Part shown: positions 20,672-35,265 of the stretch, one piece after another
Layout of the letters: each line of letters begins with the position of its first letter
Position numbering within the stretch: the stretch's first letter is position 1
Source of the DNA: Bacilli bacterium
Lineage (GTDB): Bacteria; Bacillota_I; Bacilli_A; RF39; UBA660
Direction of reading: 5' to 3'
DNA: 64,000 nucleotides
NCBI GenBank assembly: GCA_017612805.1
Contig: JAGAFD010000002.1
Location: forward strand, 287 to 64,286
Translations under genes and position numbers: made by a program
The notes under the pieces: generated by a model
Databases searched by the model: none
Seen by the model: only the letters and a program-made list of their open reading frames with translations
Told to the model about the DNA's origin: nothing

Positions 20672-21922
20672 TTAGTATAAATTCGATTGATATATCGTTA
20701 TAACTGGACGAACACCTTTAGTAAATGACACTGGCATATCAACTATATATCCACCGTTTGTAACAAGCCAAGCGCGTTCATTATTCGATGCTAGTAGGGC
20801 CTTAGTCCAGTATCCATTTGGATAAGTTAACTCAGAAGCTGGGTATTCATAATAACAACCACGGGATATGCAATCTCTTGTATAGCTAAATAGCCAAGCA
20901 GCTTTTTGTTGGGCAGTGCTTGTTGGGCAATAAACTGGGCCGTCAGGTTCATCTTTTTCATGGGAACCAAAACACCACCAATTTTGTCCCTGCGTAGCAA
21001 AGTTAACGCTAAAACCTTGTTTAGGGTTAATAACTAATGATGCATCCATAATATCTTGAGCTGATGGAAGATCAACATTAATTACTGTACTCCAAGCTTG
21101 TTTAGTAGAATAACCAGGATGACCATAATTAAAGAATGCTATTGCATTATCCCAAGTCATAACTTTATTACTACCAACGGTATCAGAAAGGTTTTGTTCC
21201 ATAATTAATTTAACGGTATTTGTTGCACTATCTTTTTTAAGTAAATAAAAATTACGCGTAATGCCATCACCTAAACTACAACCATATTTAGCACCTATTT
21301 CACCATCATTACCATAAGTATTACTAATAAATTGACATAATTGTGCTTCTCTTGCATAAAGAGTATTATCATCAATTGCTTGACCTTCAACCCTTAAGCT
21401 TAAATAAACTTCATGACCAGCTTCGCTGTTTGGCGTATCTTCATCAGCCCAAACATATAACACGTGTGTTCTAGTATCACTAGGACTAATATAATCAGTA
21501 TATAAATCATAATAGGTAATGCCACTAACAACTCTAGTGGATAATTCCGATAAAGCATAATAATTGCTACCATCTAAACTTACCCGAATGTATTGATTAT
21601 CTAATAATGTGCCACTATAATTAGCTGGCGTTTCAATATATAAACTAACTTTATAATCATAATAATAACTACCAGTATTATTAATATCAAAATCATAACC
21701 ACCATCATAAGTGGCATCATAATCACTCATTGGATAAATTGGTCCAGATACTACTGAAGCACTTGATGGCATAGAAACAGAAAAAGAGCCGGTTCCAATT
21801 TCTACACTACCCGCCTCTTCTTCACTTTTAAAGAAAGCTAGAGAAGAACTAGCAATTGATAGCACCATTAAAATAATTATGATGGAAAAAAATGCTATTT
21901 GTTTTTTGATTAGCCTTCTCAT
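20672..21922 (-). CDS. TasA/camelysin-like secreted protein with SipW-type signal peptide and C-terminal extension
   Basis: 416 aa. N-terminus ...IIILMVLSIASSSLAFFKSEEEAGSVEIGTGSF parallels the TasA/CalY signal (…TWA|AFNDIKSK…). Immediately downstream of the sipW-like gene. Confidence 0.5.
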   Translation of the reverse strand: MRRLIKKQIAFFSIIIILMVLSIASSSLAFFKSEEEAGSVEIGTGSFSVSMPSSASVVSGPIYPMSDYDATYDGGYDFDINNTGSYYYDYKVSLYIETPANYSGTLLDNQYIRVSLDGSNYYALSELSTRVVSGITYYDLYTDYISPSDTRTHVLYVWADEDTPNSEAGHEVYLSLRVEGQAIDDNTLYAREAQLCQFISNTYGNDGEIGAKYGCSLGDGITRNFYLLKKDSATNTVKLIMEQNLSDTVGSNKVMTWDNAIAFFNYGHPGYSTKQAWSTVINVDLPSAQDIMDASLVINPKQGFSVNFATQGQNWWCFGSHEKDEPDGPVYCPTSTAQQKAAWLFSYTRDCISRGCYYEYPASELTYPNGYWTKALLASNNERAWLVTNGGYIVDMPVSFTKGVRPVITIYQSNLY

Positions 21923-21934
21923 AATTAGCTCCTC

Positions 21935-22669
21935 CTATTGTTTTAATTTAGGCAACTCCATAATTTCGTCATCTAAATCAATCTTCAAGAGTTTAGCTTG
22001 AAGCTCTTTTTTACGTTTATTATTACCAAATTTAATTTCTTTGTTATTTGATGCTTCTTCTACCTCATTAACTTGTTTATTAATTTTTAACATTCTAATT
22101 AATTTAATAACATCAGTTATTAGAATAAATACCGCTGGAATTAAAATAACTAATAACCATCCACCACGACTCGCTAAGAAATATTGAATACGGCCTAATT
22201 GTGGAATACGTAATTTTACTTTACCAATAACATTATCTTGTACTACTAATGAAGTATCTTCAGTTTCATTACTATCACCTTTAGTAGTAAAGTAATATTT
22301 ATTACCAACTTTTTTAATATTAGTGATACGGTGAGTAACTGTCATTCCTTTTGATATACTTGATTCTGATTTAAAGGTAATTACTTCTCCTACTTTTAAA
22401 GAACGATAATCTTTAACCGGAACATCAATTATTACATCATATACTTTAATATTAGGTTCCATAGAAGGACTAATAATGGTATATAAAGAGAATAATGGTT
22501 CATAACCTCTACCTTTTTTAGAATAACGATAATTAGCAAAAACATAATATAATAATGCTATTGCAATTAATAATAATAAAATAAATACAGTCCAAGATAT
22601 AACATCACCAAAAAATTTGATAATACCTCTAAAAGATCTGTATGTTTCGCCCTTTTTATTCTTGCCCAT
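21935..22669 (-). CDS. sipW: Signal peptidase I, SipW type (archaeal/eukaryal-like S26B)
   Basis: 244 aa. SPSMEP catalytic-Ser box; ...MTVTHRI...TKGDSNETED... matches B. subtilis SipW (VTHRI...TKGDNN); C-terminal TM anchor. Confidence 0.8.
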   Translation of the reverse strand: MGKNKKGETYRSFRGIIKFFGDVISWTVFILLLLIAIALLYYVFANYRYSKKGRGYEPLFSLYTIISPSMEPNIKVYDVIIDVPVKDYRSLKVGEVITFKSESSISKGMTVTHRITNIKKVGNKYYFTTKGDSNETEDTSLVVQDNVIGKVKLRIPQLGRIQYFLASRGGWLLVILIPAVFILITDVIKLIRMLKINKQVNEVEEASNNKEIKFGNNKRKKELQAKLLKIDLDDEIMELPKLKQ

Positions 22670-33693: not shown

Positions 33694-34583
33694 ATCTTTA
33701 AATACTTTCTAACTGCTCTAATAGATGAAATCATACCCATCAAAGCCCCTAATACTAATACAAATAATGAAGCATAGAAAATAAATGGGAATGGTTTAAC
33801 CATCTTGATAACATTACTATAAATGTATCCATTAGTACGATCATATAAAATTAAATAACCATAAATCATAATAATTATTGGAATGATTGATCCTAAAACA
33901 CCTAAGATAAATCCTTCAAATAAGAATGGCAATTTAATAACAATATTAGAAGTTCCTACTAAACGCATAATTTCAATTTCGGTTTTTCTCGAAAAAATGG
34001 TTAATTTAATCGTGTTACCAATTAAGAAAGCCGTTACTACAAGTAGTGCAATTACTAAAATTATTGATACTTTTTCAACAATATCAAAGATTACAGCGAT
34101 CTTTTCAACCAATCCTTCATTGTAATCGACTGATTCAACATAATCACTATTACCAACATAATCAGCAACTTTTTTCATATTTTTAATATCATCAACTTTG
34201 ATAGTATATGAATCAAGTAATGGATTATAACTTAAACTATCTAAAGCATTTAATAAGATTTGACTGTCATCTTGGCATTCTTTTTTCCAATCTTCTTTAG
34301 ATTTATATTTATATTCTACAATATTTTTATTCTCTTTTAATAATGCATCATATTCTTTAATTTGCTCTTCATTAGTATCATGAAATAAATAAGCAACAAT
34401 CGTTAATTCATTTTCATATTGTTTAGTTAAATAATTAACATTAAAACTAATAATTAAGGCAATTGCTACTAATAAAAGGGTGATTGCCGAACAAGTAATA
34501 GATGCAAAGCTTAAACTAAAATTACGGAAAACACTTTTGAAAGCGTCTCTAATATTTCTAATTATTACTCTTATCGCTCTCAT
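33690..34583 (-). CDS. ftsX: Cell-division ABC transporter permease FtsX
   Basis: Four-TM FtsX topology with a large extracellular loop after TM1. Start set at the second Met (MRAIRVIIRN...) rather than the track start 34607; this is uncertain, and either start overlaps ftsE. Confidence 0.75.
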   Translation of the reverse strand: MRAIRVIIRNIRDAFKSVFRNFSLSFASITCSAITLLLVAIALIISFNVNYLTKQYENELTIVAYLFHDTNEEQIKEYDALLKENKNIVEYKYKSKEDWKKECQDDSQILLNALDSLSYNPLLDSYTIKVDDIKNMKKVADYVGNSDYVESVDYNEGLVEKIAVIFDIVEKVSIILVIALLVVTAFLIGNTIKLTIFSRKTEIEIMRLVGTSNIVIKLPFLFEGFILGVLGSIIPIIIMIYGYLILYDRTNGYIYSNVIKMVKPFPFIFYASLFVLVLGALMGMISSIRAVRKYLKI

Positions 34584-35265
34584 AATATTTTCCTTTCTCT
34601 TGATCATAAACGACTACACCATTTTCAATCGCAATAACTCTTTTTTTCATTTTATCAACAATTTGTTTATCATGAGTTGCCATAATAATAGTAGTTTTTA
34701 ATTCTTTGTTAATAGTTTCTAGTAATTTAACGATTTCAAGTGATAGTCCTGGGTCTAAGTCTCCAGTAGGTTCATCGCAAATTAATACTTTGGGATTATT
34801 GACAATTGCACGGGCGATACATACACGTTGTTGTTCGCCACCAGATAATTGATTTGGGAAAGCTCTAACTTTATCTTTTAAACCAACATGTTCTAAAGCT
34901 TTTAATACTTTTGTTCTAATTTCATCACTTTTAGTTCCGATTGATTCCAAACCAAAAGCAACATTTTCATAAACGGTTAATTTTGGTAATAGTTTAAAAT
35001 CTTGAAATACTACCCCAATTTTTCTTCTTAATTTATAAACCGAACTATTTCTTAATTTAGCAACATTAATACCACCAACATAAACTTCACCTTTTGTTGG
35101 ACGTTCTTCACGATATAATAGTTTAACCAATGATGATTTACCAGAACCAGAGTTACCGATAATAAAAACAAATTCACCTTTACCAATCGTAAGATTAGTA
35201 TCAACTAAAGCGGTTACGCCATTTTGATAAACTTTATATACATTTTTTAATTCAATAAACTTCAT
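34558..35265 (-). CDS. ftsE: Cell-division ATP-binding protein FtsE
   Basis: 235 aa. GNSGSGKSS Walker A, LSGGEQQRVCIARA signature, ICDEPTGDLD Walker B. Confidence 0.9.
   Translation of the reverse strand: MKFIELKNVYKVYQNGVTALVDTNLTIGKGEFVFIIGNSGSGKSSLVKLLYREERPTKGEVYVGGINVAKLRNSSVYKLRRKIGVVFQDFKLLPKLTVYENVAFGLESIGTKSDEIRTKVLKALEHVGLKDKVRAFPNQLSGGEQQRVCIARAIVNNPKVLICDEPTGDLDPGLSLEIVKLLETINKELKTTIIMATHDKQIVDKMKKRVIAIENGVVVYDQEKGKYYESDKSNN

Follow-up and report, generated by a model that had tools for sequence, protein, structure and literature searches.

Do twelve adjoining genes that bring together prepilin-like proteins, a SipW-type signal peptidase with TasA-like proteins, and the cell-division pair FtsEX with an M23 peptidase encode one surface structure, or are they several systems lying next to one another? 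The question is raised by positions 20672–35265 of a 64-kb stretch of Bacilli DNA (the window, by which the whole 64,000 nucleotides (nt) analysed are meant), where a first-pass annotation had recognised one co-oriented surface locus joining two N-terminal maturation systems, that of prepilin leaders and that of SipW-dependent signals, with FtsEX-M23. The answer favoured here, with a probability of about 0.65, is that four independently inherited envelope modules lie side by side and do not constitute one system: the ftsE-ftsX-M23 genes, two pilin-like genes, a bPH_3/371-aa/LysM/DUF4352 module (aa, amino acids), and a trio in which sipW stands between the genes of a 194-aa and a 416-aa protein.

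The evidence that carries this answer is the synteny across relatives, which are uncultured gut Bacilli labelled 'Tenericutes', 'Erysipelotrichaceae' or Candidatus Ventrenecus. Homologues of the DUF4352 protein were used as the anchor and neighbourhoods were taken from 80 species genomes, where upstream counts refer to the 68 loci with enough flank and the downstream count of sipW to the 48 whose flank reaches 6 kb or more. Of the 68 loci, 46 have a bPH gene ahead of the DUF4352 gene and 58 have a LysM gene next to it, and a homologue of the 371-aa protein was found by tblastn at the same position in 55 of the 80; 17 of the 48 loci have a sipW gene (at least 40% identity) further downstream on this strand, at distances of 0.6–9.5 kb; ftsEX-M23 adjoins the module in 2 of the 80 species loci, and only in the closest relatives (L012, L010/L013 and L093); and genes with a prepilin motif occur in 5 of the 80 neighbourhoods. 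For instance, in L010 (49% identity) the M23 gene leads directly into bPH_3, without pilin genes and without the 194-aa/sipW/416-aa trio, and more distant relatives retain only bPH/370/LysM/DUF4352. The phylogenetic spreads of the components therefore differ, and the linkage of all components that marks a single conserved gene cluster or operon was not found. Because this linkage is not conserved in related genomes, the locus is read as a set of juxtaposed modules, and the idea of one surface locus joining two maturation systems with FtsEX-M23 failed on the synteny check.

All twelve annotated minus-strand open reading frames (ORFs) were recovered with exactly the same boundaries, and every gene and hairpin of the stretch described below is on that strand. 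The twelve genes nevertheless fail to stand out as a co-oriented unit, because they belong to an uninterrupted run of 43 minus-strand ORFs (20672–63840) with uniformly negative GC skew; their common orientation is what chance would give, and it was rejected as evidence of an operon. The window is chromosomal DNA with a GC content of 22–32% and negative GC skew throughout, and it holds the housekeeping genes parA/parB, ychF, rplK-A-J-L, nusG, pheST, ligA and pcrA; the 14.6-kb stretch is on the leading strand, close to parAB and ychF, in the low-GC chromosome of an uncultured rumen/gut member of the Bacilli, and identical copies of the region are held by rumen and gut metagenome scaffolds. As for the gene identities, profile hidden Markov models (HMMs) upheld FtsE, FtsX, the M23 peptidase, the prepilin leader of a 1391-aa protein, bPH_3, LysM and the SipW-type peptidase, but a second, 393-aa pilin fell just below threshold, and the TasA assignment found remote support only, the models for TasA, TIGR04088 and TIGR04087 remaining unmatched.

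In the first module, ftsE (34558–35265) encodes the cell-division ABC ATPase of 235 aa and matches TIGR02673 at 273 bits (cutoff 264.85), and ftsX (33690–34607), a 305-aa ORF, matches NF038347, FtsX_Gpos, at 265 bits (cutoff 225); the true start of ftsX is probably about 8 codons downstream of the ORF start, and relatives are called at 297 aa. The start of the third gene (32476–33693) overlaps the ftsX stop by 4 nt, and its product is a secreted coiled-coil M23 peptidase of 405 aa (PF01551, 59.3 bits), a partner of FtsX of the PcsB/EnvC type; its match to CC_PcsB is weak (20.4 bits, below the cutoff of 27), and SMC-like coiled coils are matched as well. The equivalog matches of FtsE and FtsX and the adjoining coiled-coil M23 protein identify an FtsEX-hydrolase division module, for which pairing with a coiled-coil M23 partner is the standard arrangement. 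The order ftsE-ftsX-M23 is kept in L010, L012 and L093. In this module, FtsEX would activate the M23 peptidoglycan hydrolase at the divisome.

The second module consists of two pilin-like genes. The larger (28236–32411) encodes a giant modular type IV pilin-like protein of 1391 aa, a putative adhesin in which a prepilin leader and an alpha-1 helix are followed by Ig-like modules, Flg_new repeats (54 bits) and unassigned beta modules; its class III signal peptide is recognised by the IPR012902/PF07963 HMMs (N_methyl, 29.3 bits, cutoff 21.2) and by TIGR02532 (27.1 bits, cutoff 16.3), and pilins in the PDB are matched in sequence to an E-value of 4e-5. Essentially no relatives of this protein were found, and the single distant match from the JGI metagenomes is a Sec-signal protein with common internal domains. 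Together with a hairpin on each side, the gene forms a single-gene cassette of 4.28 kb (28196–32475): in blastn comparisons with the sister species L012 and L093, the alignment ends at 32476 and restarts at 28195, about 30 nt stand there instead of the cassette, and its GC content is 0.32 compared with 0.22–0.29 in the adjoining DNA. The cassette was either inserted in this species or lost from the sister species.

The smaller gene (26974–28155) encodes a modular pilin-like protein of 393 aa with three Ig/FnIII-like domains. The canonical leader motif KKNG|FTIAE is present, but the HMM scores are just short (PF07963, 17.7 bits against a cutoff of 21.2; TIGR02532, 15.9 against 16.3), and the protein shares 32% identity with the pilin module of the 1391-aa protein. 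The AlphaFold2 model shows an N-terminal helix of 50 residues (8–57) and then three beta-sandwich Ig/FnIII-like domains; in Foldseek searches with this model, SiiE and fibronectin were at the top and tandem Ig/FnIII matches dominated, so that the comparison bears on these domains rather than on the pilin fold. Only six homologues were found, each with at least 61% identity and all within the genus. The two sister species have one pilin gene, of 469 aa, between M23 and bPH_3, and elsewhere in the clade pilin-like genes stand singly amid housekeeping genes, as in L092.

The first-pass annotation had also held that pilus machinery is missing from the window, and this was confirmed: a pilus ATPase, a platform protein and a prepilin peptidase were looked for and not found in the ORFs of the 64-kb window, and the roughly 8 kb past its low end contain a diversity-generating retroelement (DGR) but likewise no pilus genes. 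The 393-aa and 1391-aa proteins would be cut at G|F by a prepilin peptidase from another part of the genome, and both would be displayed on a Com-like or type IV pilus (T4P)-like filament, probably at its tip, where the Ig-like, Flg_new and other beta modules would serve as adhesins. Downstream of rplL (44747–45744, minus strand), three small ORFs with membrane anchors were observed; one of them, a 112-aa ORF (45110–45448, minus strand) 17 kb from the pilin genes, has a prepilin-like leader, G|WGLAE, and 26% identity to the pilin module of the 1391-aa protein, and it may be a conventional pilin of the same filament. The ORFs at 43806–45744 were also considered as a comG-like operon and rejected, since they include no ATPase, platform protein or HMM match and only the 112-aa ORF is pilin-like.

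The third module is the one with the widest spread. It begins with the gene of a bPH_3 protein (26478–26939; PF14470, E-value 1e-8), followed by that of a 371-aa protein with an N-terminal membrane anchor (25373–26488), for which there was no HMM match in Pfam or NCBIfam and homologues were found by tblastn. Next come a LysM protein of 116 aa (24975–25325; PF01476, 57 bits), in which one repeat is clear and the second degenerate (relatives of about 150 aa have two LysM matches each), and a multi-pass membrane protein of 524 aa with a DUF4352 ectodomain (23360–24934), for which 261 full-length homologues reach down to about 30% identity, several of them with PF11611. The four proteins are predicted to be a membrane- and wall-associated module of the envelope, present clade-wide. 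A strong hairpin (25320–25358; −14.2 kcal/mol, z −5.99) lies around the Shine-Dalgarno sequence and AUG of the LysM gene, and it may be a translational control element.

In the fourth module, the central gene (21935–22669) encodes a signal peptidase I of 244 aa and of the archaeal/endoplasmic reticulum (ER) type, which scores 104 bits with TIGR02228 (cutoff 51.85) and shows the motifs SPSMEP and THRI in its sequence; it is assigned to the SipW type. The Bacillus SipW equivalog NF046067 is matched at 101 bits, below its cutoff of 190, and a Pfam scan gave no match at E ≤ 0.01. Upstream, in the position of tapA, lies the gene of the 194-aa protein (22744–23328), which has a membrane anchor with TTFSFY and, according to homology and a profile match, a beta domain like those of the TasA superfamily; since NCBIfam gave no TapA match (TIGR04087/YqxM), it is analogous to TapA by its position upstream of sipW only. 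Downstream, the 416-aa protein (20672–21922) has a SipW-like signal, SSSLAFFKSEEE, a beta-sandwich resembling the TasA/camelysin superfamily at about residues 47–183, and a head resembling C-type lectins and DUF1566 at about residues 196–416. Its N-terminus resembles the SipW-signal motif (LAFFKSEEE) by a reading of the sequence alone. Queried by themselves, the 416-aa and 194-aa proteins matched nothing in Pfam, NCBIfam or the PDB sequences, and TasA was not found in PDB sequence searches with the 416-aa, 194-aa or N-module profile queries.

The connection to TasA depends on family profiles. The first 190 residues of the 416-aa protein define a family of 428 cluster representatives, in which the module is always N-terminal and occurs alone (about 185 aa) or before diverse cargo; PF12389 (Peptidase_M73, TasA/camelysin) is matched by 8 of 52 sampled remote relatives of this N-module, with a best E-value of 3.5e-6. 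Similarly, the family of the 194-aa protein and that of the N-module were joined by hhalign with a probability of 91% and an E-value of 1e-6, and this profile-profile comparison alone joined them, as a direct BLASTP of the two proteins gave nothing. Fold comparison with 7UEG and 8AUR (archaeal bundling pili and TasA fibres) gave low scores, and generic beta-sandwiches scored about as high. The predicted TasA link of the two proteins is thus remote, at the level of the superfamily and, more tentatively, of the fold, and strict family membership failed. In this module, SipW would remove the unusual signal peptides, the 194-aa protein would be a membrane-proximal anchor or nucleator, and the TasA-like module of the 416-aa protein would attach or oligomerise by strand complementation, displaying the C-type-lectin-like head for glycan binding.

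Three kinds of N-terminus, prepilin-type, SipW-type and Sec-type, were seen to carry the lectin head of the 416-aa protein; in other bacteria the head is joined to the prepilin or the Sec kind. Another lectin-type protein is encoded at the low end of the window by a complete DGR (1–1670, minus strand), which runs past the window edge and corresponds to 11072–14519 of locus L094; it is identified as such by an RVT_1 reverse transcriptase, a 116-nt pair of template repeat (TR) and variable repeat (VR), and 21 of 23 mismatches at TR adenines. Its target gene encodes 685 aa, of which residues 1–556 are inside the window; the C-terminus is a C-type-lectin-type variable region, and the N-terminus, LIGVSLANFTAV, looks like a SipW-type signal. 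The head of the 416-aa protein was tried as a second DGR target and rejected, as the TR is unmatched anywhere in the window. In addition, a 160-aa protein (4785–5267, minus strand) beside a GGDEF protein has an N-terminus (AISLFFKSG) like that of the 416-aa protein and may be a SipW-type substrate. The same part of the window holds a possible defence gene (6418–8763, minus strand), whose 781-aa product has an N-terminal TIR/ThsB-like domain and WD40/beta-propeller repeats.

A conserved SipW operon was observed in uncultured gut Bacilli (L011, L021, L023, L036, L038, L044, L049–L051, L056 and L071), and it appears to be uncharacterised. Its order is one to four copies of a subunit of about 225 aa, a protein of 400–800 aa, sipW, and a small membrane protein. 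The subunit has a near-invariant N-terminus, LLTVIAVATLLVAVVGATFAYFTA, with the motif GATFAYFTA, and occurs in up to four tandem copies (L038); in L011 this major subunit matches TIGR04088, the SipW-cognate signal class, at 19.7 bits (cutoff 19). The 400–800-aa protein before sipW has a cytoplasmic N-terminus, a membrane span with GATYSYIK at its end, repeats rich in aspartate and, C-terminally, a beta domain, and the 194-aa protein of the window is a shortened homologue that matches its ends. The major subunit with GATFAYFTA is absent from the window's version, and the window trio, judged by these homologies, would be a reduced version of the clade's operon with a tapA-sipW-tasA-like layout. 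A different cluster was seen in L010 (15917–20166): two of its proteins have the N-terminal pattern 'SxGYA.L.QRLTI.G', one is a multi-pass membrane protein with a fused domain like that of signal peptidases, and one is a DUF5305 protein.

The stretch also contains three hairpin plus U-run elements, which the first-pass annotation had taken to segment the locus. They are real, and they fold far better than shuffled sequence, with 0 of 200 shuffles as good. The terminator-like element after the M23 gene (32450–32477) has −8.5 kcal/mol and z −3.85; that after the 1391-aa gene (28197–28231), also detected by a terminator scan, has an 11-bp stem, −11.4 kcal/mol and z −4.14; and that between the 194-aa gene and sipW (22709–22743) has −10.8 kcal/mol and z −4.58 and is followed by a promoter-like site, TTTATA-18-TATAAT (22716–22687, minus strand). 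The hairpins would act as partial terminators that separate transcription units. Analogous hairpins with U-runs stand directly upstream of sipW in L012, L011 and L023, and these pre-sipW elements fit attenuation between the abundant structural genes and the peptidase.

Several points weigh against the reading as four independent modules. First, the stretch from the 393-aa gene to the 194-aa gene is tightly spaced (31–52 nt or overlapping) and holds no terminator-like hairpin, so in this species one transcript may run from the pilin gene through the envelope module to the opening gene of the SipW operon. Second, sipW adjoins the DUF4352 module in about one third of species, which is above random placement. 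Third, neither the 416-aa nor the 194-aa protein matches TIGR04088 (none at E ≤ 1) or PF12389. Finally, prepilin-type and SipW-type carriers bear the same lectin head, and for Clostridium perfringens a T4P-dependent export of SipW-operon proteins has been reported (PMC11580942), so that some functional cross-talk may exist.

Among the alternatives, a co-operation between the DUF4352 module and the SipW operon survives best and is the main residual question, although it is considered unlikely. It proposes that the membrane- and peptidoglycan-binding proteins form a platform on which TasA-like subunits, once cut by SipW, are anchored or guided, with the pilins and ftsEX-M23 as bystanders. It agrees with the 17 of 48 informative species loci that have a same-strand sipW downstream, and with the spacing of the 194-aa gene, which comes 31 nt after the DUF4352 gene in the window and 4 nt after it in L012, while in L093 the two overlap; in the window no hairpin lies between them; but about two thirds of the informative loci have no sipW within 6–10 kb of the module, the gap varies from 0.6 to 9.5 kb with unrelated genes in between, and uvrB often follows where the two co-occur, which suggests inherited chromosomal order rather than an operon. 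One such interval was seen in L061 (12676–15221), where two proteins of about 80 aa and two of about 160 aa with hydrophobic N-termini and one 345-aa protein lie between the DUF4352 gene and sipW; this small-protein set is reminiscent of Flp/Tad-like systems, and two prepilin genes lie 7 kb upstream.

A second residual question is a possible role of the pilins in the export of SipW substrates. It has been reported that in C. perfringens the T4P genes are functionally tied to the bsa operon (sipW-bsaA-bsaB-bsaC), with T4P-dependent secretion (PMC11580942). In this uncultured gut Bacilli clade, type IV pilin modules and SipW-processed TasA-like modules could be pictured as interchangeable carriers of the same adhesin heads, in filament systems that may also co-operate, SipW substrates being brought across the wall with the help of a T4P-like filament, as has been proposed for C. 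perfringens. This picture is decidedly doubtful; if it were true, the adjacency in this genus would be an early functional coupling and no accident. The first-pass view of one integrated locus, taken in its strongest form, in which a type IV filament with both pilins helps to move SipW-processed TasA-like proteins through the wall, as proposed for the Bsa proteins of C. perfringens, FtsEX-M23 remodelling is co-ordinated with it and internal terminators grade expression, is very improbable: the genes are contiguous, the hairpins are real, T4P-dependent secretion of SipW-operon proteins has a precedent (PMC11580942) and the lectin head is common to prepilin-type and SipW-type proteins, but the linkage is confined to one genus and the 1391-aa gene to one species, ftsEX-M23, as a division module, is universal and has a terminator of its own, the window has no pilus machinery, and co-orientation is uninformative.

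The reading as four neighbouring modules has a corrective value, as what seems to be a locus with two maturation systems should not enter catalogues as a new system of secretion or assembly. Meanwhile, the individual modules are of interest: the 1391-aa modular type IV pilin exceeds the lengths in the published survey; the combination of a TasA-superfamily carrier with a C-type-lectin-like head, which is also found on pilin modules in related bacteria, would extend module grafting from pilins to TasA-like subunits; and a large clade, made up of uncultured gut Bacilli, has both a conserved, uncharacterised SipW operon and the bPH/LysM/DUF4352 module. These proteins provide concrete candidates for the attachment of reduced-genome gut bacteria to glycans or particles.

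Each module can be compared with a known system. The FtsEX systems with EnvC in Escherichia coli and PcsB in Streptococcus pneumoniae have the same FtsE ATPase, FtsX permease and co-encoded secreted hydrolase-type coiled-coil protein, and no notable difference from FtsEX with a coiled-coil M23/CHAP partner is seen, apart from the sub-threshold Pfam match of the window protein to the PcsB coiled coil. The pilin-like proteins correspond to modular type IV pilins, whose N-terminal pilin module (class III leader and alpha-1 helix) bears grafted adhesin or lectin modules; these are widespread and are predicted at the filament tip, for example PilB/PilC of Streptococcus sanguinis (PMC8179133, PMC9934059). 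The longest modular pilin in the 2021 InterPro survey has 860 aa, so the 1391-aa protein is an extreme member; both window genes lie outside any pil or com operon.

The SipW trio shares with B. subtilis tapA-sipW-tasA and B. cereus sipW-tasA/calY the order of accessory protein, SipW-type peptidase and fibre-type protein; in addition, the peptidase belongs to the archaeal/ER kind (TIGR02228), a motif like A-F-F-x-(D/S/E) closes the signal, and the proteins flanking sipW appear to belong to one beta-sandwich superfamily tied to Peptidase_M73. In contrast to the Bacillus operons, the 416-aa and 194-aa proteins are unmatched by PF12389, TIGR04088 and TIGR04087, the 416-aa protein has an extra C-type-lectin-like head of 220 residues, and SipW is below the Bacillus equivalog cutoff. 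The stretch as a whole can be compared with the C. perfringens bsa system, in which a Firmicute likewise has type IV pilin genes connected with a SipW/TasA-like operon (PMC11580942). Because this connection has been reported, the claim of the first-pass annotation that the arrangement is undescribed was too strong and needs to be toned down; but the link in C. perfringens is genetic and functional and comes with complete T4P machinery, whereas the window has an adjacency that is not conserved, with neither machinery nor a vWA protein seen.

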